Notes: generated by a model from the sequence alone, not told the origin. A stretch of DNA of 14,172 nucleotides from Archangiaceae bacterium (GCA_043750125.1 JAYVCD010000125.1:1-14172), one strand, 5' to 3'. Positions 1-14,172 are shown, numbered from the stretch's first letter. Translations and numbers: made by a program.

Positions 1-21
1 CCCGGTTACTTCAACGGGCTG

Positions 22-2088
22 CTAGAGCCAACCCAGCGGCTCGAAGCGCAATCGCAGTGCCCCGTCGCGCAGCAGCTTCTTCACGAAGTTCAGTCCCGCG
101 CGGGTGCGAGCGGCGTCCTCCGGGCCCGTCGCGCCGAGCGCCAGCGCGATCGAATGTTTGCCGTCGATTTTCGAACACAGGGCTTCCATGTCCACGCCTT
201 CGATCATCGGAATGCTCAAGGTCCGCGGCTTCACTTTTCGATTCATCGGGGCAAAGCGCAGTTGCAGCAGCGGCTTGCCTCCTGAGAGCGATCGGCTGGC
301 GTTGAATTCCCAGCGGGGGGAAAGAGCCGGGAACAGCTCGGCGGCGGTGGGCTGCTCGACCCGGTACGGGCCCAGGTAGAGCACGTCCATCGCGGTGTAC
401 AGAAAGCACTGGAGCGCTTCTTTCGGCGACTCGACAATCGGCATTCCGCGCAGGTTGAACGAGGTGTTGAGGACGACCGGAACTCCGGTTCGCTCGCCGA
501 AGGCCGAGATCAACCGGTGGTAGAGCGGGTCGACCTCGCGGTCCACCGTCTGAATGCGGGCGCTGCCGTCGACGTGGGTAACAGCGAGGACCCGGTCCGC
601 CCACGCCTTGCGAACGGGAGCCACAATCAACATGTACGGGCTCTCGCCCTCGAGCTCGAAGACCTCGTTCGCCCGCTCGGCGGTCACGCTGGGGGCAAAA
701 GGGCGAAAGCCTTCTCGAAACTTCACCTGAGCGTTGACCACGTCCTTCATTCGCAGCGGGCGGGAATCGGCCAGGATGCTTCGATGGCCGAGCGCGCGGG
801 GCCCCAGCTCGCTGCCGCCCTGGACCCACCCCAGGATGCGTGAGTCGGCGAGCTGTTCGGCAGCGTCCTCGGCCAGGGCCTGGTCGTCGGGCAGCTTGCG
901 GTACCGGATGCCGCAGTCTTCCAGCAGCCGGTGAATGCCTTCCGCCGGGTAGGTTCGGCCCCCAAAAGCGTGGCGAATCGGTTTGATCGGGCCGCCTGAG
1001 AGCTGCAGATGTCCGTAGTAGGCAAGGCCGATGGCCTGCCCATTGTCGGCGGCACACGGCTGCACGAAGACCCGGTCGAAGATTTTTTTCGAATGGATGA
1101 TTCCGTTGGTGACCGAGTTCAACGCGACCCCACCGGCGAGACAAAGGTTGGCGGCGCCCGTCGCGCGCTTGAGCTGTTCGGCCAGGTGGACCATGGCCTG
1201 CTCGGTTTCGATCTGCACCTTGTACGCGAGGTCTCGGGCGAACTGACCCTGCCCGTCCCGCGCGAGCAGCCCCAGCTGTTCCTCGTTGGTGAAAAAAAAC
1301 TCGTAGACCCCCGAACGCCGCGCGAACTCGTAGAACTTCGAGAAGTCGAGGTGGAAGCCGTCACGCCCGACCCACGACTCGGCCAGTTCCGCGTTTGGGC
1401 GCCCGTACGGCGCGAGTCCCATCGTCTTCCCGGGGTCACCGATTTCGATCGTTCGGTTCTTGAAGCCGAGCGCAACGGTAACGAACTCGTACATCAGCCC
1501 GATCCCACCCCAGCGATCGGCGGCGGTCTTGTCCGACGGCGAGCTGCCGAGCATCTCGGCCGTGTAGCGGTTCTTGAAAATTTCTTTGTAGTTGCCCTTT
1601 CGATTCTCGAAAAAATAGCCGGTCTCAGCTTCCGAGGCGCTCGAGCCGTCGGCGGTGACGATCGCCGAGCCGTCTGCGTCGACCACCAGCACGGCAGCCT
1701 TTTCGAAGGGGCTTGCGTGAAACGCGGAAAGCGCGTGGCAGAAGTGGTGGGTTCCACCGGCGGGTTGATCGGCCACGATGATCTTCTTGCGATCGATCGG
1801 GAGGAAGCCGCCCCAGTCGACGCTGAACCAGTCGTTCTGGGGCACGACGATCGCGTCCAACTGGTCGAGCGAGATGCCCGCGGTCTCGAGGCAGTAGGTG
1901 ACCGACGCCCACGGGAAATAGCCCCACCGAAAGTTGTACCAGAACCAGTGGCTGCGTTGGTCTGCGGGCACCGCGTGCTTGACGCGCGTGAGCCGCTCTT
2001 CCTCGATTGCCACCACGATCTCGCCGTCCCGAAGCAAACACGCTCCGACATCGTGACCGCCCACATAGACACCAAGCACGTACGCCAT
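22..2088 (-). CDS. Carbamoyltransferase, NodU/CmcH/TobZ family (CT1), ~688 aa, with C-terminal extension
   Basis: Motifs GGHDVGACLL, AIEEERLTRVK, HHFCH (HxxxH), VVDADG, GKTMGLAPYG, LAGGVALN, DNGQAIG, ELGPRALGHRS, VKFREGFRPFAP, HVDGSARIQTV, LNTSFN. Start set at ATG 2088 (MAYVLGV aligns with the paralogue N-termini; AAGGGG lies 4 nt upstream) rather than TTG 2154. Stop TAG at 22-24. Confidence 0.95.
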   Translation of the reverse strand: MAYVLGVYVGGHDVGACLLRDGEIVVAIEEERLTRVKHAVPADQRSHWFWYNFRWGYFPWASVTYCLETAGISLDQLDAIVVPQNDWFSVDWGGFLPIDRKKIIVADQPAGGTHHFCHALSAFHASPFEKAAVLVVDADGSAIVTADGSSASEAETGYFFENRKGNYKEIFKNRYTAEMLGSSPSDKTAADRWGGIGLMYEFVTVALGFKNRTIEIGDPGKTMGLAPYGRPNAELAESWVGRDGFHLDFSKFYEFARRSGVYEFFFTNEEQLGLLARDGQGQFARDLAYKVQIETEQAMVHLAEQLKRATGAANLCLAGGVALNSVTNGIIHSKKIFDRVFVQPCAADNGQAIGLAYYGHLQLSGGPIKPIRHAFGGRTYPAEGIHRLLEDCGIRYRKLPDDQALAEDAAEQLADSRILGWVQGGSELGPRALGHRSILADSRPLRMKDVVNAQVKFREGFRPFAPSVTAERANEVFELEGESPYMLIVAPVRKAWADRVLAVTHVDGSARIQTVDREVDPLYHRLISAFGERTGVPVVLNTSFNLRGMPIVESPKEALQCFLYTAMDVLYLGPYRVEQPTAAELFPALSPRWEFNASRSLSGGKPLLQLRFAPMNRKVKPRTLSIPMIEGVDMEALCSKIDGKHSIALALGATGPEDAARTRAGLNFVKKLLRDGALRLRFEPLGWL

Positions 2089-2125
2089 TCGTCCCCTTGC
2101 AGGTTCGCCATCGCTGAAGGCGCAA

Positions 2126-2154
2126 AGTCTGACCCGCCCACGCTGGGTTGACAA
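2126..2154 (-). promoter_or_regulatory. Possible sigma70-type promoter for CT1 in the divergent CT1/CT2 intergenic region
   Basis: Minus strand reads TTGTCA (2154-2149), a 17-nt spacer, then CAGACT (2131-2126). The plus strand has an overlapping perfect TTGACA (2148-2153) but no good -10. The 123-bp gap between divergent genes is expected to hold promoters; this exact site is speculative. Confidence 0.25.
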
Positions 2155-2211
2155 TCAATCGCCCGGGCTTTCCCTCTTGCCCCGTACGGACCTGAGCAGA
2201 AGAATCAGGCG

Positions 2212-4281
2212 GTGCCGCTGGTTCTCGGAGTCAATTGGGGAGGGATCCAGCCGGGCGCATGCCTGTTGCGCGATGGCGCAATCGTCGTCGCCATCGAAGA
2301 AGAGCGCCTCACCCGGGTGAAGCAGGGAATCCTGGGGCCGCACCGCTGGCTTTGGCTTTGGTACAACCTGCGGTGGGGCTACTTCCCGTGGGCGTCGGTG
2401 ACGTATTGCCTGCGAACCGCGGGCGTCTTGATCGACCAACTCGACGCGGTGGTGGTCTCGCGAGACACCCTACCCTTCGGAGTCGCCTGGGAATCTTTCC
2501 TGCCCATTCACCCCGACAAGCTGATTGTCCAGAGCGAGCCCGTGGGCGCATCGCATCACTTCCGCCATGCGCTCTCGGCCTTTTACGCCAGCCCGTTCGA
2601 CAGCGCTGCAGTGCTCGTGCTCGACCCGGTGGGTTCCGAGGACACCCCTGCGGTCCCGGGGGGCAGCCGAAAAGGCGGCGAGGGCGAATCTGCGTACCTC
2701 TTCGAGGACCGGTCGGGCGCGTACCAGGAAGTCTTCAAGAACCGGTACGAAACCCAGATGACCCTTCGCGCCGGAGCCATCGAAGATCCGGCCCGCTGGG
2801 GGGGAATCGGAATGATGTCTCTGGTCGTTTCGACCGCTTTGGGTTTTCGAGATCCCAACACCCGGCTGGACAGCGGGGGCCGGACTGTGGCGCTCGCCGC
2901 GCATGGCAGCCCCAGCCCCGAGTTTGCCGATCCGTGGATCTCCGACAAGGGCTCGCACCTGGATTTTTCGCGCTTCCATCAATTCGCCCAGGACTCCCAC
3001 CTCTTCGACCTTCCGCCTGGAGACCCTTCCGCGGCGATGCCCGCGCTGTTCGATGCCCGGGCCAGGAACCTCGCCCACAAAGTCCAGCTCGAGACCGAGC
3101 GGGCGATGGTGCATCTGGCCGAGAGGCTTCGCAGTGAGACCGGGGCGACGTGTCTGTGCCTGGCCGGTGGGACGGCGCTCAACGGGGGGGCCAACAACGC
3201 AATTGTGTCTCGGGGAATTTTCGAGCACGTGTTCGTCCAACCTGCCGCGGATGACGATGGGCAGGCGATTGGACTGGCGTACTACGGGCACCTGAAGCTC
3301 TCGCGCGAGCCGATCAAGCCGATGCGACACGCGTTCGCGGGTCGGTCGTATTCGAACGATGAAATCCGGATCTTGCTCGACTCCTACCGACTCGGCTACC
3401 GCGAGCTCTCGGACGAAGGTTCGCTGCCCGATCACGCGGCTGCCGACCTCGCCACATCGCGAATCGTCGCGTGGTTCCAGGGGGGCAGTGAGTTCGGCCC
3501 CCACGCGCTGGGCCATCGCAGCATTCTCGCGGACCCACGGCGGGCCGAGATGAAGGAACAGGTCAGCGCCCGCGCCAAGTTTCGGGAAACGTACCGCCCG
3601 TTCGGGGCCAGCGTGCTCGCCGAGCGCGCGACCGAGATCTTCGACCTGCGAGGCGGGGAAAGCCCGTACATGCTGATCACCGCGCCGGTGCGAAACGAAT
3701 GGTTGGCGCGCATTCCTGCAGTGACCCACGTGGACGCAACGTGCCGGATCCACACCGTCAGCCGCGACACAGATCCGCTCTACCATTGCCTGCTCGAAGG
3801 GTTCAGTGCGCGAACCGGCGTCCCGGTGCTGCTCAACACCTCGTTCAACCTGGCCGGCCTGCCCATCGTCGAATCACCGCGCGACGCGCTCCAATGCTTT
3901 TTGTTTTCGGAAACCGACGCGCTCTACCTGAACCACTTTCGAGTCGAGCAGCCGCCGCTGAGCGCCCTCTTCCCGCAGATGAATCGGCTGTGGGAGCTCG
4001 TCGCGCCCGCATCCAGTCCCGGCGAGCTGCTCTTTAGCTTCACCCCGATGAAGGGGGGGCAGGCCAAGCCGAAGTCGGTCGTGGTCCCGGCAATTCAGGG
4101 AATACAGATGGAACGCCTGTGCGCCGGAATGGACGGAGTGCGCTCGCTCGAGCAGCTGCTCGAGGAAGCGGGGCCGGAAGCACTCCACGATTCCGACCGG
4201 GCGGCGCAGGTGGTGCGCTTCGTCAAACGGGCGCTGCGCGAGAACGCGCTCCACCTGCGCTTTGGGTCCGACGTGCTGTAG
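2212..4281 (+). CDS. Carbamoyltransferase-like protein (CT2), 689 aa; divergent paralogue with degenerate catalytic motifs
   Basis: Collinear with CT1/CT3 over its length (AIEEERLTRVK, HHFRH, LAHKVQLETE, LGHRSILADPR, ESPYML, LLNTSFN). Changes: HD->IQ, GKTMGLAP(Y/F)G->GRTVALAAHG, GPRALG->GPHALG, RPFAP->RPFGA, RIQTV->RIHTV. GTG start, TAG stop, no frameshift. Confidence 0.92.
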   Translation: MPLVLGVNWGGIQPGACLLRDGAIVVAIEEERLTRVKQGILGPHRWLWLWYNLRWGYFPWASVTYCLRTAGVLIDQLDAVVVSRDTLPFGVAWESFLPIHPDKLIVQSEPVGASHHFRHALSAFYASPFDSAAVLVLDPVGSEDTPAVPGGSRKGGEGESAYLFEDRSGAYQEVFKNRYETQMTLRAGAIEDPARWGGIGMMSLVVSTALGFRDPNTRLDSGGRTVALAAHGSPSPEFADPWISDKGSHLDFSRFHQFAQDSHLFDLPPGDPSAAMPALFDARARNLAHKVQLETERAMVHLAERLRSETGATCLCLAGGTALNGGANNAIVSRGIFEHVFVQPAADDDGQAIGLAYYGHLKLSREPIKPMRHAFAGRSYSNDEIRILLDSYRLGYRELSDEGSLPDHAAADLATSRIVAWFQGGSEFGPHALGHRSILADPRRAEMKEQVSARAKFRETYRPFGASVLAERATEIFDLRGGESPYMLITAPVRNEWLARIPAVTHVDATCRIHTVSRDTDPLYHCLLEGFSARTGVPVLLNTSFNLAGLPIVESPRDALQCFLFSETDALYLNHFRVEQPPLSALFPQMNRLWELVAPASSPGELLFSFTPMKGGQAKPKSVVVPAIQGIQMERLCAGMDGVRSLEQLLEEAGPEALHDSDRAAQVVRFVKRALRENALHLRFGSDVL

Positions 4282-4296
4282 CCGTGCGGCTACAGC
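4275..4296. repeat. Perfect 10-bp inverted repeat spanning the convergent stop codons of CT2 and CT3
   Basis: GCTGTAGCCG (4275-4284) - TG - CGGCTACAGC (4287-4296). Each arm contains one gene's TAG (4279-4281 on +, 4290-4292 on -). A short T-containing tract (GTTTGT) follows on the + strand. Confidence 0.8.
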
Positions 4297-6341
4297 GTTT
4301 GTGAGCCAAACCGCAGCCCGATCGCGCCTTCCCGCAGCAGCAGCTTGATGAACCGGACGACCTCGACGATGCGGTCAGGCACCGCCGCACCCGGCCCCGC
4401 TGTTTCCAGGGCCACCCCGAGCGAACGTGTGCCGTCCATCCCGCGGCAGACGTGTTCCATGTCCACTCCCGCAATCGCGGGGACAGGAATCGCGCGGGGC
4501 TTCACGTTTCTGCGCAGAGGCGAAAATCGGATTTCGACCCGCTTCTCGCCGCTGGGTTGCGCCTGGCTCACCACGAGCTCCCAGCGCCGGCGCAGCGCGG
4601 GAAAGAGCTCGGACGGCCGCGGAGGCTCGATTCGGTAGCGGCCCAGATAGAGGGTGTCCATCTCGGTGTAGAGAAAACACTGCAGGGTGTCTCGCGGGGT
4701 CTCGACGATCGGCATTCCCCGCAAGTTGAACGAGGTGTTGAGCAGCACCGGAACCCCGGTCAGCTTCGAGAACTCCGAGATCAGCGCGTGGTAGAGCGGG
4801 TCGACCTCGCGTTCCACCGTCTGGATCCGCCCGGTACCGTCGACGTGGGTGATCGCCGGAACGCGTTCGATCCATTCCTTTCGCACCGGCGCGACGATCA
4901 GCATGTACGGGCTGTCGCCGCCGCGCAGCTCGAACACCTCGGTCGCGCGCTCGGCCAACACACTCGGAGCGAAGGGTCGAAAAGCTTCCCGGAACTTCAC
5001 CCGGGCGTTGACGATGTCCTTCATCTCGGGACGACGGGGGTCGGCGAGAATGCTGCGATGGCCCAGCGCGCGTGGGCCCAGCTCGCTGCCGCCCTGAAAC
5101 CAGCCGAGGATCTTCGACGCGGCCAGATCGGCGGCGGCTTCTTTCGCGACGGCCGCGTCGTCGGGCAGCGCGCGATAAGTGATACCGCACGAGTCGAGGA
5201 ACCCCAAAATCTCGAGATCCGAATAAGTCCGGCCACCGAACGCATGCCGCATCGGCTTGATCGGAGCGCGGGAAAGCTTCAGATGGCCGTAGTAGGCAAG
5301 CCCGATGGCCTGCCCGTTGTCTGCCGCGGCCGGCTGGACGAACACCCGCTCGAACAGACCGCTGTTCTGGATGATCCCGTTCGCCACGGAATTCAACGCC
5401 ACGCCCCCCGCCAGGCAGAGGTTGCTCGCTCCCGTCTCGCGCTTGAGCTGCTCGGCCAGGTGCACCATCGCCCGCTCGGTTTCCAGCTGCGCTTTGAACG
5501 CGAGGTCCTTCGCCTGCTGACCGAAGTGCCCTTCGTTGGCCAGCATTCCGCTGCCCTTCTCTTCGTTGACGTAGGTGTCCCAAAGACCCGAGGAACGCGC
5601 GAATTCGAGGAAGCTGGAAAAGTCGAGCTGGAACCCCTTGTGCCGGATCCACGGCGCTTCGAAGTCGGCGTTGGGGCGGCCAAAGGGAGCCAGGCCCATC
5701 GTCTTCCCGGCATCGTCGAAGCCGGTGACGCGCGATCGGAATCCGAGCGCCATCGACACCACCATGTACATCATTCCGATTCCGCCCCAGCGCGCCGGGT
5801 CGCCGGGGGCATGCAACGGCTCGATCTGGTATCGGTTCTTGAAGACCTCTCGAGGGCTGGCGCCGCGCGTTTCGAAGAGGTAGCCGGTTTCCGATTCACC
5901 CCCGCGCTCGTCCTCGGATCCAATTCCGTCGACCACCAGCACTGCCGCGTGATCGAACGGACTGGCATAAAAGGCCGAGAGTGCGTGGCTGTAGTGGTGC
6001 ACTCCGCCGGGAGGCTCGTCGGCGATGATGATTTTCGAAGGGTCGATCGGCAGCAGCCCGGCCCAGTCGACCTTGCAGAAATCATCGAGCCCCTGCACGA
6101 CGAGGGCATCGAGCTCGTGAAGCGAAACGCCCGCAGCGCGCAGGCAGTAGGTGACCGACGCCCACGGGAAATAGCCAAACAGCGCGTTGAAGTTCGGCCA
6201 GAGGTAACGGAACGACGCAGGAATTCCGTTCTTCACCCGGGTCAGACGCTCTTCCTCGATGGCGACGACGATCTCTCCGTCGCGCAGCAGGCAGGCGCCC
6301 GGATCGTGCCCGTGATTGAAAACACCGAGAATGAGGGTCAT
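4290..6341 (-). CDS. Carbamoyltransferase, NodU/CmcH/TobZ family (CT3), 683 aa, with C-terminal extension
   Basis: Intact motifs GHDPGACLL, EEERLTRVK, HHYSH, VVDGIG, AGKTMGLAPFG, LAGGVALNSVAN, DNGQAIG, ELGPRALGHRS, VNARVKFREAFRPFAP, DSPYML, HVDGTGRIQTV, LLNTSFN. GGAG lies upstream of the ATG. Confidence 0.96.
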   Translation of the reverse strand: MTLILGVFNHGHDPGACLLRDGEIVVAIEEERLTRVKNGIPASFRYLWPNFNALFGYFPWASVTYCLRAAGVSLHELDALVVQGLDDFCKVDWAGLLPIDPSKIIIADEPPGGVHHYSHALSAFYASPFDHAAVLVVDGIGSEDERGGESETGYLFETRGASPREVFKNRYQIEPLHAPGDPARWGGIGMMYMVVSMALGFRSRVTGFDDAGKTMGLAPFGRPNADFEAPWIRHKGFQLDFSSFLEFARSSGLWDTYVNEEKGSGMLANEGHFGQQAKDLAFKAQLETERAMVHLAEQLKRETGASNLCLAGGVALNSVANGIIQNSGLFERVFVQPAAADNGQAIGLAYYGHLKLSRAPIKPMRHAFGGRTYSDLEILGFLDSCGITYRALPDDAAVAKEAAADLAASKILGWFQGGSELGPRALGHRSILADPRRPEMKDIVNARVKFREAFRPFAPSVLAERATEVFELRGGDSPYMLIVAPVRKEWIERVPAITHVDGTGRIQTVEREVDPLYHALISEFSKLTGVPVLLNTSFNLRGMPIVETPRDTLQCFLYTEMDTLYLGRYRIEPPRPSELFPALRRRWELVVSQAQPSGEKRVEIRFSPLRRNVKPRAIPVPAIAGVDMEHVCRGMDGTRSLGVALETAGPGAAVPDRIVEVVRFIKLLLREGAIGLRFGSQTL

Positions 6342-6390
6342 CGCTGGCGCTCTCCGATTCGCGCGGCTGGAAAAGACGGGGCTGCGTTCC

Positions 6391-7155
6391 TCAAGACCAG
6401 AACCAGAGCTTTCCCGAGGGCAGTCGCCCCAGAAAGGTACCGAAGCTCATCCGCACACTGGGCGCCGGCAGGACCTGATGAAAGTTTCGGGTGTTGAACA
6501 TCACCAATTCGCCGCTCACCGGCTTCACTTGATACGAGCGGGCTCCCTTCACCACCTCGTCCTCGTAGCCGTAGTTGCCCGGCAAACGAAGCCGCTCATC
6601 GGCCGGTTCCCACGCTCGATCGTAGATGTGGGTCGCGCCTTCCTTCGGGCTCGTGAGGTAGACGTTCCAGGTGAGCTGACCTGTGACCTCGCTGATCTTC
6701 CAGCCCCGGGCTTCCCACGGGACGAAGTCGATGTGCACCGGAGACCCATTCTCGAACCGCCTGAAGACCCCGACCGCGTAATTCCCGACGTCCTCTTCGT
6801 GGGCGACCTCGATCGGACCCACCGCGTGGTGCCTCAGCATTTCGATCAAGCGAGCGAAGGGGTCGAACGCCACCGCATAAATCGACGTGAGGGACTGTGC
6901 CGCCGCAGCGGTGGCGGCTCGAAAGCCGGCCTTTTCGTCAGGCTGGAACTCGAAGCGGGCGGCGCCGATGTGACCAATCGGAGGGTTGGCATTCTTGTAC
7001 GGGGTGAACCCGTGCTGCTCAGCGGCGAAGGCCAACGTGGCGCACTCTGCTGCGCTGGCAAACCCGGGGACTCGAATGGCTGGAATTTCGTTGCGAAACA
7101 GCCGCTCGACATTGTCCGCGCTCAGCTCGCCCGCGCGATCGGATTTCCAGGGCAT
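6391..7155 (-). CDS. 2-oxoglutarate/Fe(II)-dependent dioxygenase (probable hydroxylase), ~254 aa
   Basis: Facial triad H-I-D (6735-6727) plus distal His in NTRNFHQV (6480-6478); 2OG-binding R-x-S in VRMSF (Arg 6453-6451); DSBH-type strands QLTWNVYL and GELVMFN. Start uncertain: ATG 7155, GTG 7218 (overlapping the upstream stop) or ATG 7257. Confidence 0.85.
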   Translation of the reverse strand: MPWKSDRAGELSADNVERLFRNEIPAIRVPGFASAAECATLAFAAEQHGFTPYKNANPPIGHIGAARFEFQPDEKAGFRAATAAAAQSLTSIYAVAFDPFARLIEMLRHHAVGPIEVAHEEDVGNYAVGVFRRFENGSPVHIDFVPWEARGWKISEVTGQLTWNVYLTSPKEGATHIYDRAWEPADERLRLPGNYGYEDEVVKGARSYQVKPVSGELVMFNTRNFHQVLPAPSVRMSFGTFLGRLPSGKLWFWS

Positions 7156-7210
7156 CGGAAGATTCTCAGGGCCGCCGACCCCAGCGTCAATGTGGAACCC
7201 AGCGGCAGTC

Positions 7211-10200
7211 TCACCCACGTTTGGACCCACGCACCCAATGGTGGACGAACGCTTCATCGATCACCGACACGTCGTCGTCTGAGGTGAAGGCGCGCAGCTT
7301 TTCGCGAAAGCCTCGATTGTCCAACTGAAGCTGGGCCACAGCTCCCATCGGCTGGGCCCACCGCTCGATCAAAGGCAATGGCGACCGTCGGCGCAAGGGA
7401 AGATCGAGCCGAGCCAGGGCCAACGTGAAGCGAGCCAACCAGTCATCGTACGAGGCGATTCGCACCAGCGGGTGTCCCGCAGATTCTACCCAGTCCACGA
7501 TCCGGTCGAGCGACACCCCATCGTCCCAATGGCCATTGCTGACGTGAAAGGTCCGATACCCCTCGAAGTTTTGCATCGTGATGCCGGCAAGGGTGGCGGC
7601 CACCACGTCCACCGGGATCCCGTCGAAATGGCGCGGCAGGCGGAAGTCCGGGTCGTAAAAAGAAGCAGGCGCCAGACCCGTGGTGATCACCCCGAAGAGC
7701 AGTCGGGAAATGTTGTCGTCTTCGTTGATCTGGCCGAGCAGGCTTCGATGCGGCAGCACCATTCCGCAGCGATGCACGGTGACGGGGATCCCGCAGCGCT
7801 GATGCAGGTCGCGCAGCAAGACCTCGCTGGCCCACTTGCTGGTGGCGTACCCCTCGCCGGGCCCCGAGCCCACCCCCCGGCTGGGCCATAAAGACGCGGC
7901 GTCTTCACTCTCGAGAATGGGCTCCGGTCGATTCAGGCCAGCCGCGACCCCACTCGAAGAAACGAAGTGAATCGCCTTTCGCCTTCCCTCGAGACAAAAA
8001 CGCATCACCTCGACCGTTCCGAGGACGTTGGGCTCGAACAGCTGCGCGTAGGAAAAGCCGTGATTCACCAGCGCGCCGTTGTGCAACACCGCGTCCACCC
8101 GGCCCGCGAGCGCTTCATAGATCCGGTCCGGCAGGCCGAGCCTGGCCTGCATTTGATCGCCGGCGTGGACGACCAATTGATTTTCGTTCGTCAGGCTCTG
8201 AAACCGATGGAGCAGCTCGGCCCCGCCCTTCGCGAATTGGCCCACCAACCGAGCGCGCGCAGAAGCATCGTCCGTACCGCGAACGAGGCACACCACCTGC
8301 CCGGCTCGCCCCGTGACTCTCTGAAGCAGCTCGAGAAGAAGGAAGCGGCCCAGAAAGCCGGTGGCTCCGGTGAGCAACACGATGCTCGGCTCGGCCTCGG
8401 CCCTTCGTCCACCCGCCCGCGCGACTTCCGCGGGCAAGAAAGATTCGACCCGCAGCTGGGCTGCGTCGACCCGTTGTGCGCCTTTTCCGTGAATGCGATC
8501 GAACGTCGGACGATCGGCCTGGGCCCCCTGCAGCTCTTCGACCTTTCGGACAATCGCGGCCAACGAGGTGCTGGGGTCGAGGACTTCGCCCACCGAGGGC
8601 GCAGCGCCACACGCGTCCTCGAGCAGCGAACACAACCGAACCGCGCTCAGGGAATCGCCCCCCAGCCCGACGAAGCTGCGGGAAGAATCGAGCTCCTCGA
8701 GGCTCAACCCCAGCGCAGTGGCGATCGCGGCGCCCACCCGCTGGGCCACGGGGTTCGTCGACGCACCCTCGGCGGCCTGCTTTCCTTCCACCTGACGACT
8801 TTCGATCTGGGCGTACCGCGCTTCGAGACGCGCCCCATAGGCGGCCTTCAAGGCCGGGCGCCTGGGTTTGTTGGCCTCGGTCAGCAGCCCGTTTTCTTTG
8901 GTGAACGGGGCGGGCTCGACCACGAAGTCGCGCGGCACCTCATGGCTGGGCAGCCTCGCCCCCTTCGAAACGCGATCGACTTCGCTTCGCAGCAAACGCT
9001 TGATTTGAATCTCGCGATCGCCGTCGGCCGTGGGTCGGCGCGCCAGCTCGACGCTCACCGCTTCTGCGTTCGGAACCACGACCGCCAGCAGGTAGGCCCG
9101 CAGCGCATTTCCGTAGAGGTAGATCTGCTCGATGAACGGGCTGCTGGTCGCGAAGAGCTCTTCCAGCCTCGAGATGCTCACGAACTCGCCTTGCGACAGC
9201 TTCACCACGTTGTGCTTCCGATCGATCCACACCAGGTGGCCCGGGCCCCGCTCTTCCATGATGTCGCCGGAATGCAAAAAGCCGTCGGGGTCGCGAAGCC
9301 GCTCGCTCGCGTCCGCATTCTTGAAATACCCGGGCGTCGCATGCGCAGTCTTGACGAGCAGCTCCCCTCTGGGAAACGGCCGATCGTTGAAGCTGTACCC
9401 GAGCTCAGGAACGTCGACCAACTTGTACGCGACGCCAGGCTGAACGCGATCGTTGATGGTCACCAGCCCAAGCTCGCTAAAGCCGTAGCCGATTCGAATC
9501 GAGACCTGAAAGCAGCGTTCGAGAAAGATCAGGACCTCGGGCGCGGTCGGCGCCGCATTGGTCTCGATCAAGCACAAGCGGTCTCCGAGGAAGGTGTGGC
9601 GCATCTCGGCCCTGATCGTCTCGGCCAGGCCTGCGTCCTCTGCACCCGGGTTCCCGCGTTTGACCAGTTGGCTTTGAAAGTGCTGGTAGATCATTCCTGA
9701 GACGCGCGGCATCAAAGTCATCACGGTGGGGCGCACGATCCGAATGTCTTCGAACAGCGTGGACATGTCGCTTCGGGGAACGAAGTGGGTCACTCCTCCA
9801 CGCATCAATGCGCGGTAGGTATTGAAGCGACCGGTCACGTGACACAGCGGCAGATAGCCGACGGTGATCCCCGGCACGGGCACTTCGAGAAGCACGTACC
9901 GGACGCGGTTGACCCAGCTGCTCTGCCGATGGGTGACACCCTTGGGCGCGCCGGTGCTGCCCGAGGTGTACATCACCGTGACGAGAGGATCGCTTCCCCT
10001 GGCCAGTACCCCGACCGCGACAGGACCCGCCGTCCGGCCAATGGCCTCCACTTCTTCGATGGTGCGGGTTTTCTGGCCCCCGCCCCACCCCCGATCCACT
10101 TCGTCGGGCAGACGGACATCAATCACAGTCACGCTGCGAAGGGTGGCGCAGCTCTCCAACACCCCTCGAAGTGTGTCGAGTTGGTCGGCGCTGCAGACCA

Positions 10201-10642
10201 GACACGCCAGCTCGGTTTCAGTCGCAATCTGCGCGAGCTCTTCTGCCGCCAGGTTCGATTGCAGGGGCACCGAAATCGCGCCGAGGTAAAGGCAAGCCAG
10301 GTCCGCCACCACCCAGTCCGTGCTGGCGAAGCCGCAGATCCCGACGAAGTCACCCGCGCGCACCCGGTTTTGGTGGAACCACCCCCCGGCGAGGGCGCAG
10401 ACGCGGTCCCACAGCTGGCGATAGCTGAGCGTTTCGAAGCGCGGGGGCCCCTCGAGGTCGCGCGTCCCCAGGCAAGGGCGGTCTGCGTAGCGCTTGCATG
10501 CGTACGCCACGTACTCGATTCCGGGGTGTTCTTCGTCGCGCAGAAACGCGAGCACTTCGTCCGAAGCAATCGTGTCACGCAGCTGCGGGTCGGTCTGAAG
10601 CAGAGTTGCCGCTCGTTGTAATGCGGCGTCGAAGTCAGACAC
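7211..10642 (-). CDS. car: Carboxylic acid reductase (CAR-type A-T-R protein), ~1143 aa
   Basis: CAR-typical segments YADRPCLG, RFETLSY..LW.RV, SDMSTLFEDI..VRPT, YKLVDVPELGY..DRPFPRGELLVKT, DR..NVVKLSQGEFV, NGLLT..K. A3 motif YTSGSTGAPKG; PCP LGGDSLSA (Ser 8653-8651); R domain LLTGATGFLG and GYATSKW (YxxxK). Start GTG 10642 overlaps the upstream stop; alternative GTG 10663. Confidence 0.93.
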   Translation of the reverse strand: MSDFDAALQRAATLLQTDPQLRDTIASDEVLAFLRDEEHPGIEYVAYACKRYADRPCLGTRDLEGPPRFETLSYRQLWDRVCALAGGWFHQNRVRAGDFVGICGFASTDWVVADLACLYLGAISVPLQSNLAAEELAQIATETELACLVCSADQLDTLRGVLESCATLRSVTVIDVRLPDEVDRGWGGGQKTRTIEEVEAIGRTAGPVAVGVLARGSDPLVTVMYTSGSTGAPKGVTHRQSSWVNRVRYVLLEVPVPGITVGYLPLCHVTGRFNTYRALMRGGVTHFVPRSDMSTLFEDIRIVRPTVMTLMPRVSGMIYQHFQSQLVKRGNPGAEDAGLAETIRAEMRHTFLGDRLCLIETNAAPTAPEVLIFLERCFQVSIRIGYGFSELGLVTINDRVQPGVAYKLVDVPELGYSFNDRPFPRGELLVKTAHATPGYFKNADASERLRDPDGFLHSGDIMEERGPGHLVWIDRKHNVVKLSQGEFVSISRLEELFATSSPFIEQIYLYGNALRAYLLAVVVPNAEAVSVELARRPTADGDREIQIKRLLRSEVDRVSKGARLPSHEVPRDFVVEPAPFTKENGLLTEANKPRRPALKAAYGARLEARYAQIESRQVEGKQAAEGASTNPVAQRVGAAIATALGLSLEELDSSRSFVGLGGDSLSAVRLCSLLEDACGAAPSVGEVLDPSTSLAAIVRKVEELQGAQADRPTFDRIHGKGAQRVDAAQLRVESFLPAEVARAGGRRAEAEPSIVLLTGATGFLGRFLLLELLQRVTGRAGQVVCLVRGTDDASARARLVGQFAKGGAELLHRFQSLTNENQLVVHAGDQMQARLGLPDRIYEALAGRVDAVLHNGALVNHGFSYAQLFEPNVLGTVEVMRFCLEGRRKAIHFVSSSGVAAGLNRPEPILESEDAASLWPSRGVGSGPGEGYATSKWASEVLLRDLHQRCGIPVTVHRCGMVLPHRSLLGQINEDDNISRLLFGVITTGLAPASFYDPDFRLPRHFDGIPVDVVAATLAGITMQNFEGYRTFHVSNGHWDDGVSLDRIVDWVESAGHPLVRIASYDDWLARFTLALARLDLPLRRRSPLPLIERWAQPMGAVAQLQLDNRGFREKLRAFTSDDDVSVIDEAFVHHWVRGSKRG

Positions 10643-13376
10643 CCGCGCTCTCTTTCTGGGCACGTTCCAGACAGCCCCGAAGGCAGGCCGCCAGCGCGGC
10701 GACGTTGTGTGGACGCAGCACCTCGAAATGCGTCCCGGGGATCTCGTGGTTTTCGATCTTCGGGGCCAGCTCTTCCCAGGCCCAGGGCGGAGGCAACGGC
10801 CGGTGTGGCCTCGGAATCACCTGATCGCGCGCTCGCAACAGCGTCAGTCGATCGGGGTAAGCCTCAGGAACGCAGCCGGACAGCGCCCGCATGTGGGTGG
10901 AAAACAATCGAAAGGCGATTCGCAGCTGGGTCAGCCCACCCTCTTCGATCACGTAACCCAGAGGTCGCAGCTTGCGCAGGATCAACTCGATCCGAGCGTC
11001 CGGCCCCAGGCCGCTGAACTCTTCGAGGGTCCCCTCGATTTCGGTGCCGAGCGTGCGCCCCATGATCACCGTGAACCAGAACGACAACACCTCAGGGTCG
11101 AAGTCCCTCGACGCCTCGCGCATGCGGCCCCGGGTGGCTGCGTGGGTGGGTCGGGCTTCAATCAACCCGAGCAATGCGACCTTCTGACCCTGGCTGCGCA
11201 GCAGCTGAGCCATCTCGTAGACGACGGCTCCGCCGAAAGACCACCCCGCCAGAAAGTAGGGACCCTGAGGCTGCACTCCCCTGATGACCCCGACATAGAA
11301 GGCGGCCATCTGCGCAACGCTGCCCAGGGGCTCTTGCTGACCGTCGAGGCCCTGCGCCTGAATCCCATAGACCTGCTGATCTTCCCCGAGCAGGTGCGCC
11401 AATTCGACGTAGCAAAAGACGTTCCCGCCGATCGGGTGGACGAGGAACAGGGGGGGCCGGGTTCCCCGGTGCAACGTCACCAGCGGCGACCACGGCTCGG
11501 GGAGGCCGCCCTGCCGCAGCAGCGCCGCGAACTGTTCGATCGTCGGGCGGTGGAACAAGGCCGAGAGCGGCAGCGCCCGCGCCTGCCTCATCTCGATCTG
11601 CGCCATCAATCGCAGCGCCAGCAGCGAGTTTCCGCCCAACTCGAAGAAGTCGTCGGTCACGCCGATGGGGTGGATCCCAAACAGCCCTTCCCACAGCCTC
11701 ACCAACTCGAGCTCGAACGCGTCTCGCGGCGAGACCCACTCATGGCTGAGCCGAGGGCGTGCATCACCCGGAACCGGCAACGCCCGCCGGTCGATTTTCC
11801 CACTGGGGGACAGCGGCAGGGCTTCGAGCGTCACGAACGCCGAAGGCACCATGTACTCGGGCAGCTGCTTTTGCAGGTGCGCCCGCAGCTCGCTCGTCGA
11901 CGGCGCCTGCTCGCCCGACGAGGCCAGGTAGGCGACCAACCGCTTTTCGCCGGGCGTGTCCTCTCGAGCCACGATCACCGTCTCGCGCACGGCCGGATGT
12001 CTCAAGAGCACCGCTTCGATCTCGCCCAGCTCGATCCGAAAGCCGCGAATCTTTACCTGGTGGTCGACCCGGCCCAGGTATTCGATTGCACCGTCGTTGC
12101 GGTAGCGCGCCAGATCGCCGCTCTTGTAGAGGCGTGCCCCGGGTTGAATCGAAAACGGATCAGGGACGAACTTCTCGGCGGTCAGTCCGGGCTGGTGAAG
12201 GTAGCCCCGCCCCAGGCCGGTTCCCGCGATGTACAGCTCTCCCACCGCGCCGATCGGAACCGGTCGCAGCTCGCGGTCGAGCAGATGAATCCGGCAGTTG
12301 GCAATCGGACGACCAATCGGAATCGAACGCGGCGGGGTTCCCCGCTCACACGTCCACGCCGTCACGTCGACCGAGGCTTCGGTGGGCCCATAGAGGTTGT
12401 GAAGCGCAGCAAAAGCGCACCGCCGAAAGAACCGCTCGGACAATTCGACCGACAGGGCTTCGCCACTGCAGATCATCTGGCGCAAGGAAGTGCAGGCCTC
12501 GAGCCCCTCGGCCTCGACCAGGGCCCCCAGCATCGAAGGCACGCAGTGCATCGTGGTCAAGGCCTGATCCTGAATCAGCTGCACCAGGTAATCAGGATCC
12601 TGGTGACCGCTCGGCCGCGCTACGACCAGCCGCGCGCCGGTGATCAGCGGCCAGAACAGTTCCCACACCGAGACATCGAAGCTCAAGGGAGTCTTCTGCA
12701 GAACCCGATCGACTGCCCCAAGCCGATAGGCTTCCTGCATCCAGAGCAAGCGGTTGCAGATGCCCTGGTGGGTGTTCATCGCGCCTTTGGGTCGTCCGGT
12801 CGAACCCGAGGTGAAGATGACGTACGCCAGCTGCTCGGGGCGCGATCCACCCACCGGTCGATCTTCCCGCTCCTGGCCGATGCGCGCCCAGTCGCGGTCC
12901 AGACACACCCGCACCGCAGCATCTGCCGGAACCCGTGGAAGCAGCCGGTCTTCAGTGAGCAAGACTTTGACCCGGGCGTCTTCAGCCATCCACGCCAGCC
13001 GTTCGGAGGGGTAGGACGGGTCGAGCGGCACGTACGCGCCGCCGGCTTTGAGGATTCCCAACAGCGCGACGATCATCGCCAGCGATCGCTCGACACAAAT
13101 TCCAACCAGCACCTCCGGCCCGACTCCCAGACCCTGAAGGAAGTGCGCCAGTTGATTGGCTCGCCGATCGAGCTCGACGTACGTCAGCTGCGTTCCCTCG
13201 AACGTCACCGCCACCGCGTCGGGGGTGCGCGTCGCCTGATCCTCGATCAGCTCATGCAGGCATCGGTCTTTCGGATAATCGCGTTCTGTCGAGTTCCATT
13301 CGAGGAACAGCTGTCGTTGCTCTGCGGGGGCGAGCAATTCCAGTCCTTCGACCCTGAACTCAAGGTCCTCAGCCAT
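10635..13376 (-). CDS. Stand-alone NRPS-like protein, A(Ser)-T-TE, 913 aa, no condensation domain
   Basis: A-domain cores LTYVEL, LKAGGAYVPLD, YVIFTSGSTGRPKG, FDVSVWE, NLYGPTE, GELYIAG.GLGRGY, YKSGD, GRVDHQVKIRGFRIELGEIE, SGKIDR. T domain FFELGGNSLLA (Ser 11627-11625). TE motifs LFLVHPIGG, GWSFGG (Ser 11240-11238), GTHF (His 10730-10728). Specificity code read by eye is DVWHISLVDK, a Ser-type code. Confidence 0.95.
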   Translation of the reverse strand: MAEDLEFRVEGLELLAPAEQRQLFLEWNSTERDYPKDRCLHELIEDQATRTPDAVAVTFEGTQLTYVELDRRANQLAHFLQGLGVGPEVLVGICVERSLAMIVALLGILKAGGAYVPLDPSYPSERLAWMAEDARVKVLLTEDRLLPRVPADAAVRVCLDRDWARIGQEREDRPVGGSRPEQLAYVIFTSGSTGRPKGAMNTHQGICNRLLWMQEAYRLGAVDRVLQKTPLSFDVSVWELFWPLITGARLVVARPSGHQDPDYLVQLIQDQALTTMHCVPSMLGALVEAEGLEACTSLRQMICSGEALSVELSERFFRRCAFAALHNLYGPTEASVDVTAWTCERGTPPRSIPIGRPIANCRIHLLDRELRPVPIGAVGELYIAGTGLGRGYLHQPGLTAEKFVPDPFSIQPGARLYKSGDLARYRNDGAIEYLGRVDHQVKIRGFRIELGEIEAVLLRHPAVRETVIVAREDTPGEKRLVAYLASSGEQAPSTSELRAHLQKQLPEYMVPSAFVTLEALPLSPSGKIDRRALPVPGDARPRLSHEWVSPRDAFELELVRLWEGLFGIHPIGVTDDFFELGGNSLLALRLMAQIEMRQARALPLSALFHRPTIEQFAALLRQGGLPEPWSPLVTLHRGTRPPLFLVHPIGGNVFCYVELAHLLGEDQQVYGIQAQGLDGQQEPLGSVAQMAAFYVGVIRGVQPQGPYFLAGWSFGGAVVYEMAQLLRSQGQKVALLGLIEARPTHAATRGRMREASRDFDPEVLSFWFTVIMGRTLGTEIEGTLEEFSGLGPDARIELILRKLRPLGYVIEEGGLTQLRIAFRLFSTHMRALSGCVPEAYPDRLTLLRARDQVIPRPHRPLPPPWAWEELAPKIENHEIPGTHFEVLRPHNVAALAACLRGCLERAQKESAGV

Positions 13377-14172
13377 CTCGCAGTCCGTCAGCGACGTTCA
13401 GTCCTCTGAGCCGGAAGACCAGCGGCACGAGAGACACCGCCCCCAGCGTCCCCATCAACACCAGGACCGCTGCGAACAAGGCAGGCGTCACCGACGCGGC
13501 GAACGTGGTGCCCCCCGAAAAGAACCCCACGTGGGCGATGTAGTTGGCGAACACGATCTGCGCGACGACCAACCCCACCCCGGTTCCAGTCAATGCCAAC
13601 AGCTCGACCTCGACGATCAGCAATCGAATCAGCCTTCCGTTTCGAAACCCGATCGCACGCAGGGTCGAGACTTCGCCGATGCGCCTTTGAAACAGCACCG
13701 CCAACATGCTCCCGGTGGCCAGAAGCGACCCCAGGGCTACCAACGCGAAGACGGCCAGCAAAACCCCGTAGAGCGCCTTCACTTCCTGGGAACCGCGCCC
13801 GTAATAATCAGGCTCGGTCAGCGCCTCGAGATCCTGGCCGCGCAACGCCATCACCCGAACGGCAACCTGCCGCGCGTCCTCGGGGCTCGCAGTCTGAAGG
13901 GTCACCACCGCCACTTCCGATTCACCTCGATCCAGATCCGAGGCGCTGCGAGAAGTGAAGACCTCGGCCTTGTAGAGGGGAGCGGCGGTGGTGAAGACGC
14001 CCACACAAGTGAACTCGTCTTTGACCATCAGGGCTTTCTCGCCCACCCGCAGGTTCGGATTTCGTTGGGCCGCAAGCTCACCCGCGATGAACTCGGGTTG
14101 TCCATTCTGGGGCAGCCGACCTTCCAAAAGCTTCACATGGAAAAAATCGAACCCCTCCGGATCAACACCGCG
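13369..14172 (-). CDS. ABC transporter permease, FtsX/MacB family (partial; 5' end beyond the window)
   Basis: The frame stays open to the window edge (RGVDPEGFDFFHVKLLEGRLP, a MacB periplasmic-core-like segment). The C-terminal FtsX region has QRRIGEVSTLRAIGF and three hydrophobic TM-like stretches. Stop TGA 13371-13369 overlaps the NRPS ATG. Confidence 0.88.
   Translation of the reverse strand, partial: RGVDPEGFDFFHVKLLEGRLPQNGQPEFIAGELAAQRNPNLRVGEKALMVKDEFTCVGVFTTAAPLYKAEVFTSRSASDLDRGESEVAVVTLQTASPEDARQVAVRVMALRGQDLEALTEPDYYGRGSQEVKALYGVLLAVFALVALGSLLATGSMLAVLFQRRIGEVSTLRAIGFRNGRLIRLLIVEVELLALTGTGVGLVVAQIVFANYIAHVGFFSGGTTFAASVTPALFAAVLVLMGTLGAVSLVPLVFRLRGLNVADGLRDG

Follow-up and report, generated by a model that had tools for sequence, protein, structure and literature searches.

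The window analysed here is an entire contig of an Archangiaceae bacterium (JAYVCD010000125.1, positions 1-14172, our contig C125; 14,172 bp), from a metagenome-assembled genome of 6.17 Mb in 460 contigs that is 89% complete (GCA_043750125.1). Open reading frames (ORFs) were listed in six frames and filtered by the GC content of third codon positions (GC3), domains were assigned with Pfam and NCBIfam, and seven tightly packed genes were found to fill the contig (Table 1). An earlier note made from the sequence had claimed three carbamoyltransferase paralogues of the NodU/TobZ family (here CT1, CT2 and CT3), a carboxylic acid reductase, a protein with adenylation (A), carrier (T) and thioesterase (TE) domains, a 2-oxoglutarate (2OG)-dependent oxygenase and a MacB/FtsX-type permease of an ATP-binding cassette (ABC) transporter, and the domain searches recovered all seven at or near their assigned positions. 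Most probably the contig, cut at both ends, carries part of a biosynthetic gene cluster that is specific to its lineage. The most interesting feature of the locus, and one that is new here, is a triplet of GdmN-type carbamoyltransferases of which one lacks the general base.

Table 1. Genes and other features of the 14,172-bp window.
Feature	Position	Strand	Basis or remark
Repeat end by the CT1 stop codon, probable mobile-element terminus	1..25		Same 25 nt at other contig ends
CT1, carbamoyltransferase with Kae1-like and YrdC-like domains and a putative dimerisation-type domain at the C-terminus; His-Asp present	22..2088	-	PF02543, PF16861
Intergenic region of 123 bp between divergent CT1 and CT2	2089..2211		Coordinates; presumed promoters of both genes
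CT2, divergent carbamoyltransferase paralogue; Ile-Gln replaces His-Asp, Fe ligands kept	2212..4281	+	Pfam, alignment
Imperfect inverted repeat with 30-nt arms (77% complementary) where CT2 and CT3 converge at their 3' ends	4255..4316		Repeat search
CT3, least diverged carbamoyltransferase paralogue; last gene of the minus-strand operon	4290..6341	-	Pfam, structure model
2OG/Fe(II) oxygenase with WelO5/SadA fold; H141-x-D143...H226, R235	6391..7155	-	Pfam WelO5, alignment, model
Carboxylic acid reductase (adenylation, carrier and reductase domains), start probably at 10642	7211..10663	-	NF041592, solved reductases
Stand-alone nonribosomal peptide synthetase (NRPS) module, A(Ser-type)-T-TE, without condensation domain	10635..13376	-	Pfam, EntF match, specificity code
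MacB/FtsX-type ABC permease, C-terminal 267 aa, cut by the contig end	13369..14172	-	FtsX 37.4 bits, MacB_PCD 23.2 bits

The gene arrangement is operon-like and no chance juxtaposition of ORFs. The stop of the permease gene overlaps the start of the A-T-TE gene by 8 nt, the stop of the latter overlaps the reductase ORF, and the oxygenase gene is flanked by gaps of 49-55 nt; these overlaps and short gaps indicate a single operon on the minus strand, which runs from the permease gene through those for A-T-TE, reductase and oxygenase to CT3. The genes for CT2 and CT1 lie alongside, divergent from each other, while CT2 and CT3 converge with their stop codons 8 nt apart. GC3 was 0.75-0.81 in all seven ORFs. 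For two genes the ORFs carrying the Pfam domains (CT1, 22-2154 on the minus strand; oxygenase, 6391-7257 on the minus strand) exceed the data-bank proteins, which start later, at 2088 for CT1 (688 aa, P0011) and at 7155 for the oxygenase (254 aa), and the reductase in the ESM Atlas begins at residue 8. The inverted repeat over the 3' ends of CT2 and CT3 exists because two paralogous C-termini sit tail to tail, and it may be a bidirectional terminator or the mere trace of an inverted duplication. No inverted repeat was detected between CT1 and CT2, and an Rfam scan of the window gave no match.

The contig fits its genome, with a GC content of 64.3% (genome, 64.9%) and a tetranucleotide distance at the 79th percentile among the 229 contigs that reach 10 kb, and neither a binning error nor a very recent transfer is indicated. 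The first 25 bases of the window end a 98-nt stretch that also occurs at the ends of contigs C96 (positions 1-98) and C373 (its last 87 nt), and the last 20 nt of this repeat are found at positions 79-98 of contigs C268 and C15. At least three to five contigs end in this way, with the repeat in constant orientation to the unique flank, and an insertion sequence or a comparable element probably terminates here. A multi-copy element abutting CT1 explains the assembly break at that side; the right end of the window matched no other contig of its own genome.

The carbamoyltransferase triplet

Carbam_trans_N and Carbam_trans_C domains were detected above gathering scores in all three carbamoyltransferases, the C-domain with E-values (E) of 5e-68 (CT1), 8e-62 (CT2) and 9e-70 (CT3), and CT1-CT3 thus have the build of the NodU/CmcH/TobZ family (class III), in which a Kae1-like part is joined to a YrdC-like part (PF02543, PF16861). 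Their pairwise identities of 61-64% identify them, at the level of sequence, as true paralogues. HMMER aligned CT3 with TobZ, GdmN, NovN and VtdB (a chain of 7xb6) at E 3e-68 to 8e-71. The Fe ligands H115, H119, D138 and D341 (CT3 numbering), which correspond to H133, H137, D156 and D333 of GdmN, were present in all 70 aligned family members, CT1-CT3 included. The general-base histidine (H27 in GdmN, H14 in TobZ) is present in CT1 and CT3 and missing in CT2.

The loss in CT2 stands alone in the alignment. One of the 70 sequences is truncated at its N-terminus, and among the 69 that have residues at His12 and Asp13 the pair is kept in 68, CT2 (Ile-Gln) being the sole exception. His12 of CT3 is the residue on which GdmN H27 falls in the HMMER alignment; according to the GdmN study, H27 deprotonates the acceptor and the H27N variant is inactive (PMC9633730). 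TobZ H14N, as the title of structure 3vex states, was crystallised with the carbamoyl-adenylate intermediate. Since CT2 lacks this histidine, it should not be classed as a canonical O-carbamoyltransferase. At the 198 columns that are conserved in at least 90% of the 67 other members, CT2 deviates 31 times, CT1 12 times and CT3 seven times; the changes in CT2 include several in the YrdC-like half, such as R424H, and its branch is the longest of the three paralogues (0.61, FastTree). CT2 also retains all 66 invariant columns of the family, the Fe ligands and the YrdC-like motifs among them. This pattern suggests a paralogue with an altered role, not a decaying gene: CT2 may have become a catalytically silent partner in a dimer, or it may act on a nucleophile for which a general base is not required, and the pathway would probably include two canonical carbamoylations, not three. 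The multiply carbamoylated product that the earlier note had envisaged becomes less likely with a CT2 of this kind.

A C-terminal extension of about 110 residues is common to CT1-CT3. The CT3 model, built from the 70-sequence alignment (mean predicted local distance difference test [pLDDT] score, 92), was superposed on known structures with VIA-align. TobZ gave the best structural match of the catalytic domains (Z 36.4, root-mean-square deviation [rmsd] 2.5, 515 residues, 36% identity; over the superpositions, Z 36 and 511-517 residues), ending at model residue 573-577, whereas GdmN and NovN aligned over 598-609 residues across positions 2-681 (Z 35.4-35.9, rmsd 5.2-5.3), which is about 90 residues more. 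Since the model superposes on GdmN and NovN as far as residue 681, the extension is predicted to be the counterpart of the C-terminal auxiliary (dimerisation) domain of these enzymes, at the rmsd just given; for this domain HMMER saw no similarity between CT3 and GdmN or NovN, and the sole Pfam match to the three extensions at E ≤10 was DUF5703 (E 0.18). The C-terminal domain of GdmN is described as forming a face-to-face homodimer and as required for dimerisation and activity, and TobZ is, according to the same paper, a monomer (PMC9633730). The extension appears to mark a sizeable carbamoyltransferase subfamily: the top 120 of 7,997 hits include many proteins, 665-740 aa long, that match CT3 over 99-100% of its length, with named sources in Planctomycetota, Nannocystaceae, Pendulispora and Streptomyces.

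GdmN, NovN and Asm21, from geldanamycin, novobiocin and ansamitocin biosynthesis, share with the carbamoyltransferases of the window the H, H, D, D Fe ligands and, as predicted from the model, the three-domain build, and with CT1 and CT3 the histidine; the identity to GdmN and NovN is 33-34% when structurally aligned (E 8e-71 by sequence). Each of these known enzymes is the only one in its cluster and has a large polyketide or an aminocoumarin as substrate, whereas in the window three paralogues, one of them without the histidine, stand beside enzymes of small-molecule chemistry. The carbamoyl-AMP mechanism of TobZ, the nebramycin/tobramycin 6''-O-carbamoyltransferase, is taken to apply; TobZ itself lacks the C-terminal domain and has an aminoglycoside as substrate.

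In a FastTree phylogeny of 120 family members, for which support values are local only, CT1, CT2 and CT3 formed one clade with P0010 and P0094 (support 100), and CT3 paired with P0010 (support 98). The latter, encoded on a 7.2-kb ENA contig, is the closest outside relative among the best 120 of the 7,997 hits (73% identical to CT3), and P0094 is a 430-aa fragment from a 1.6-kb JGI contig. Because both fall inside the CT1-CT3 clade, the duplications are older than this genome. At least one other organism thus has a CT3 orthologue (P0010), whose gene neighbourhood probably differs from that of the window.

The thiotemplate enzymes, the oxygenase and the permease

The A-T-TE protein carries AMP-binding, AMP-binding_C, PP-binding and Thioesterase domains in Pfam, an EntF match that spans residues 2-765 (E 2.5e-175, NCBIfam) and, as read by eye, the expected catalytic motifs LGGNSL and GWSFGG. 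The specificity code of its A domain, placed by eye from the A4 and A5 motifs with GrsA numbering, reads DVWHISLVD(K), which points to the serine type (DVWHxSLxDK) and upholds, within that numbering, the serine-loading A domain proposed earlier. The stand-alone A-T-TE proteins P0353, P0355, P0369 and P0388 of other bacteria (887-915 aa) share DVWH[FIM]S..[VI]D, and the sources named for relatives of the module include Archangium and Polyangia. The window module aligns across A-T-TE with EntF-type terminal A(Ser)-T-TE modules and has a serine-type code; unlike these termination modules, which have an upstream condensation domain, the protein consists of A, T and TE only. None of the 16 Condensation matches in the genome lies on this contig, in keeping with the condensation-less thiotemplate enzymes of the earlier note. 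The best relatives within the phylum are terminal modules of large NRPSs (42-52% identity), and the phylum matches that span A-T-TE lie, among the matches listed, in open frames of at least 1,024 aa each, compared with 920 aa here. Systems of the 'load, tailor, release' kind, in which an A-T protein and a TE act on an amino acid, are a precedent for amino acid modification on such enzymes.

The reductase has AMP-binding, PP-binding and NAD_binding_4 domains and scores 1036 bits against NF041592 over residues 16-1144, where the equivalog cut-off is 1300. Matches to the structures 5msc, 5msp and 5mso of known reductases (E 1e-235 to 1e-224) cover the whole protein, the expected catalytic motifs LGGDSL, TGATGFLG and YxxxK were recognised by eye, and its ESM Atlas neighbours are named carboxylic acid reductase and come mostly from Actinomycetota. 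The type is rare in the phylum, where a search that scored two candidates per genome found it in one of 400 other genomes (G137), at 37-39% identity and in an unrelated context.

Pfam assigned the oxygenase to WelO5 (E 1e-8) and 2OG-FeII_Oxy_3, and H141, D143, H226 and R235 were invariant among 60 aligned sequences. In Foldseek, its model (pLDDT 96.6) matched WelO5 with template modelling (TM) scores of 0.76-0.80 (probability 1.00) and SadA (3w20) with a TM score of 0.65, and the HxD...H triad, the 2OG-binding arginine and the jelly-roll fold are all present. The fold is common to SadA, an N-substituted L-amino acid dioxygenase that has the same HxD triad, and to WelO5, even though the identity to these structures is only 14-18%. 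A WelO5-type halogenase was considered and ruled out, as Asp143 is present and invariant instead of the halogenase HxG/A. By its triad the enzyme is thus of the hydroxylase type, and it probably acts on a free substrate, which agrees with the earlier suggestion that the oxygenase supplies a hydroxyl; its part in providing an acceptor for carbamoylation is conjecture. A word-based search returned one relative (42%), and an exhaustive HMMER search returned 612 representatives at E ≤0.001, the best outside match being 44% identical.

The permease ORF matches FtsX above the cut-off and MacB_PCD below it (cut-off 27 bits), and NCBIfam gave weak matches to LolCE and ADOP-type permeases (E 4e-6 and 1e-4). 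No partner ATPase is visible on the contig beside the cut gene, and a PF12704 scan of the same genome for the N-terminal half of the permease gave 15 matches, none at a fitting contig end.

Proposed pathway and alternative readings

We consider it somewhat more probable than its opposite that the locus is a lineage-specific, probably functional operon for a small, serine-derived, carbamoylated and exported metabolite, which retains the biosynthetic locus with export of the earlier note in that a thiotemplate-type operon appears to be joined to an ABC-type exporter. The steps proposed here are all drawn from the chemistry of the enzyme families. The A domain would adenylate L-serine and load it onto its own carrier domain, and, as the module has no condensation domain, the TE would cleave off the seryl group, unchanged or tailored, either through hydrolysis, as happens in 'load, tailor, release' systems, or through transfer to a nucleophile. 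The reductase would convert a free, probably non-amino, carboxylic acid into an aldehyde, which enzymes encoded off the contig could turn into an alcohol or an amine, and the SadA/WelO5-fold enzyme would hydroxylate a free, possibly N-substituted, intermediate. CT1 and CT3, of the GdmN type and probably dimers, would form carbamoyl-AMP from carbamoyl phosphate and ATP and then O-carbamoylate hydroxyls, whereas CT2, with its metal site and without the catalytic histidine, would be a silent dimer partner or serve a base-independent nucleophile. The small polar product would leave the cell through the MacB-type transporter. The assignment of the acceptor hydroxyls to serine, to an alcohol derived from the reductase or to the oxygenase product is pure conjecture.

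Several observations weigh against this reading. The cluster is cut at both ends, and neither an aminotransferase or alcohol dehydrogenase, nor the ABC ATPase, nor a supply of carbamoyl phosphate is visible on the contig. The reductase falls below the equivalog cut-off, the serine call leans on residue positions placed by eye, and the tie between the oxygenase and a carrier-bound serine is loose, since WelO5-type enzymes use free substrates. Moreover, searches of 40 relatives, 400 other phylum genomes, the GTDB representatives, the JGI metagenomes and a collection of 5.8 billion proteins turned up relatives of single components but no further instance of the gene set, and comparative support for the genes working together is therefore absent. 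The earlier note had held that a lack of conserved co-occurrence in other genomes, together with the lack of a dependent metabolite, would tell against its reading, and no co-occurrence was found in the collections searched.

The composition of the cluster also allows for a lipid product instead of a small polar amino acid derivative. The reductase would make a fatty aldehyde from a fatty acid, the TE would join the alcohol or amine derived from this aldehyde to serine, and carbamoylation would give a phurealipid-like urea or carbamate lipid, to be moved by MacB/Lol-like transport. The reductase belongs to the family of fatty and aromatic acid reductases, with full-length matches from Nocardia, Mycobacterium and Segniliparus and secondary NCBIfam matches to fatty-acid CoA ligases, and an amine acceptor could account for a CT2 without general base. 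In addition, phurealipid formation requires the carbamoyltransferase gene pliA and has been postulated to proceed from a fatty aldehyde by way of an amine to the carbamoylated product (PMC4486325), and the reductase and carbamoyltransferases of the window could mirror this N-carbamoylation route. Nevertheless, neither an aminotransferase nor an acyltransferase nor a condensation domain is encoded on the contig, the sequence of the reductase does not reveal its substrate with the tools used, and the permease matches to LolCE and ADOP-type proteins that would suit this reading are weak. We hold a lipid to be a serious but unlikely alternative. It is quite unlikely, in our view, that there is no working pathway and that the locus is a recent mosaic, assembled by duplication and a mobile element and partly decaying, with CT2 becoming a pseudogene and with no product or a shunt product. 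Synteny is absent from every collection searched, the end of a multi-copy repeat directly adjoins CT1, the A-T-TE protein resembles, by the identities and lengths given above, the cut-off terminal module of a large NRPS, the reductase type is scarce in the phylum and distant there, and CT2 has lost His-Asp along with its conformity at 31 of the 198 conserved columns; but all seven ORFs are intact and host-like in GC3 and composition, the genes are translationally coupled, CT2 holds every invariant column, unlike a freely decaying gene, stand-alone serine-type A-T-TE proteins occur elsewhere, and P0010 attests that the CT clade persists in another organism.

It has also been considered whether the carbamoyltransferases act on a peptide or carrier-bound substrate, with the extension serving as a recognition element of the kind found in the biosynthesis of ribosomally synthesized and post-translationally modified peptides (RiPPs) and not as a dimerisation domain. 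The layout of the extension, beta-strands plus a helix as judged by eye, recalls winged-helix recognition domains, and homologues that bear the extension lie beside stand-alone condensation, adenylation and carrier proteins on a Streptomyces plasmid and in Streptosporangiaceae. We regard this as highly improbable and reject a PqqD-like element, because Pfam gave neither PqqD nor any other match at E ≤10 except the DUF5703 hit, because the whole model superposes on GdmN and NovN well beyond the end of the TobZ match, and because the short intergenic gaps leave no space for a precursor peptide gene. One more elaborate proposal, which we think decidedly improbable, is that CT1-CT3 assemble as a set of hetero- or homodimers through their GdmN-type C-terminal domain. 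The histidine-less CT2 would have a task of its own in this set, be it to supply carbamoyl-AMP, to serve as a scaffold or to act as an N-carbamoylase, and the three would together add several carbamoyls or a carbamoyl-carbamate (allophanate-like) chain to a serine-derived scaffold, giving a new poly-carbamoylated class made without a condensation domain.

The gene combination corresponded to no characterised cluster in any search, as the earlier note had supposed, and its analogy with polyoxin holds for the order of reactions and fails for the enzymes of reduction. The carbamoylpolyoxamic acid branch of polyoxin (PolL-PolP) includes carboxylate reduction, O-carbamoylation by the NodU-like PolO and hydroxylation, a likeness in logic and a precedent for reduction before carbamoylation; the reduction proceeds through N-acetylglutamyl phosphate with enzymes like those of the arginine pathway, and the branch, as described there, has one carbamoyltransferase and no thiotemplate enzyme, while PolL is reported to lack detectable homology (PMC4029187). 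By Pfam, no counterparts of PolN, PolP and PolM (N-acetylglutamate synthase, kinase and dehydrogenase) occur on the contig, and the carbamoyltransferase step alone is matched. The phurealipids of Photorhabdus, a further precedent for reduction before carbamoylation, differ in having an amine acceptor, which yields a urea, and, as far as their description goes, in the lack of a serine module or oxygenase and of clustering with a carboxylic acid reductase; PliA is likened to the present enzymes by description only (PMC4486325). The open-access library searched contained no paper joining a carbamoyltransferase, a carboxylic acid reductase, a biosynthetic gene cluster and serine, no related paper on A-T-TE proteins with carbamoyltransferases and, judged by title and abstract, nothing on O-carbamoylserine biosynthesis. 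The cluster follows known biosynthetic logic as an orphan variant. For want of a product or of another example, it counts as a lead and not yet as a discovery.

Whether an antibiotic is active is often decided by its carbamoylation, and carbamoyltransferases are wanted as biocatalysts. A cluster with three of them, one lacking the general base, offers a natural system in which to follow how acceptor choice diverges after duplication, and bears on whether a catalytically altered paralogue can serve as a dimer partner. Besides, condensation-less serine modules are uncommon as partners of a carboxylic acid reductase, and the pair could point the way to a small polar metabolite, as yet undescribed, of an uncultured organism that is probably a myxobacterium. 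The GdmN study, for its part, engineered an iterative carbamoyltransferase (PMC9633730).

Relatives of the cluster genes in other loci

Carbamoyltransferases were found in 14 of 41 genomes (the 40 relatives and the genome itself), with 39-47% identity to CT3 outside the latter and never in tandem, and no CT3 match in the 40 relatives adjoins the other cluster genes. In the neighbourhood of the G137 reductase the other cluster genes were not found, and three genomes of the same genus (78-97% complete) gave no oxygenase or reductase with these queries. The JGI metagenomes yielded 79 pattern matches and no relative for the reductase query, and eight loci, none of them syntenic, for the carbamoyltransferase alignment query. 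A pattern search of the GTDB representatives returned 15 loci with one full-length carbamoyltransferase gene each (one, L018, with an additional partial segment), and in these loci there was no oxygenase, reductase or permease match above 80 bits and a single weak A-domain match (24.5%).

The oxygenase profile matched in 21 of 401 phylum genomes, and five of the eight neighbourhoods of oxygenase homologues that were fetched from the phylum have an NRPS with a TE (A-T-TE-like) nearby. All four of the A-T-TE regions that were aligned carry a different code, DVQFIA.., which we take to be proline-type. In the same family of bacteria, four large genomes (loci L047, L049, L050 and L052, in genomes G400, G279, G356 and G204) have an NRPS ending in A-T-TE, 44-46% identical to the window module, about 6 kb from an oxygenase homologue that is 38% identical. 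The NRPS of L047 also has a condensation domain, and the interval at this locus, the only one annotated, holds a carrier protein, sulfate-activation genes (CysD-, CysN- and APS-kinase-like), a Zn-dependent alcohol dehydrogenase and an HlyD protein, with neither a carbamoyltransferase nor a reductase. Such loci represent a different, uncharacterised cluster, whose product is possibly sulfated. At another locus (L048, genome G339), an oxygenase homologue of 41% identity lies beside a hybrid polyketide synthase-NRPS (KS-AT-KR-ACP-C-A-T-TE), an acyl-CoA dehydrogenase, an alcohol dehydrogenase and a pyrroline-5-carboxylate reductase.

Among relatives of the carbamoyltransferases, a plasmid of Streptomyces sp. 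BB1-1-1 (NZ_CP134205.1, 14998-17100; L026) encodes a member of the long subfamily that is 45% identical to CT3 over 99% of its length, extension included, and a Streptosporangiaceae genome (L013/L061) encodes one that is 52-53% identical, with a match that ends near CT3 residue 589. In both organisms the carbamoyltransferase gene lies directly upstream of one for a stand-alone condensation-domain protein, with a TauD-type dioxygenase and an adenylating enzyme nearby, and they represent a recurring actinomycete cluster with a differing gene set and an undescribed product. As these carbamoyltransferases adjoin condensation and adenylation proteins, enzymes of this kind work beside thiotemplate enzymes. 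The single carbamoyltransferases of two Planctomycetota loci (L011 and L014; 52-55% identical to CT3) are found among Ser/Thr kinases, regulators and transport genes and may have a housekeeping or envelope-related role, and three further loci (L012, L015 and L016) have one carbamoyltransferase each, 51-53% identical to CT3. In the Melainabacteria locus L018 (9953-12549), a full-length carbamoyltransferase gene (35-42% identity) is immediately preceded by a segment that looks like the C-terminal half of such an enzyme, which may reflect a partial tandem duplication or a split gene.

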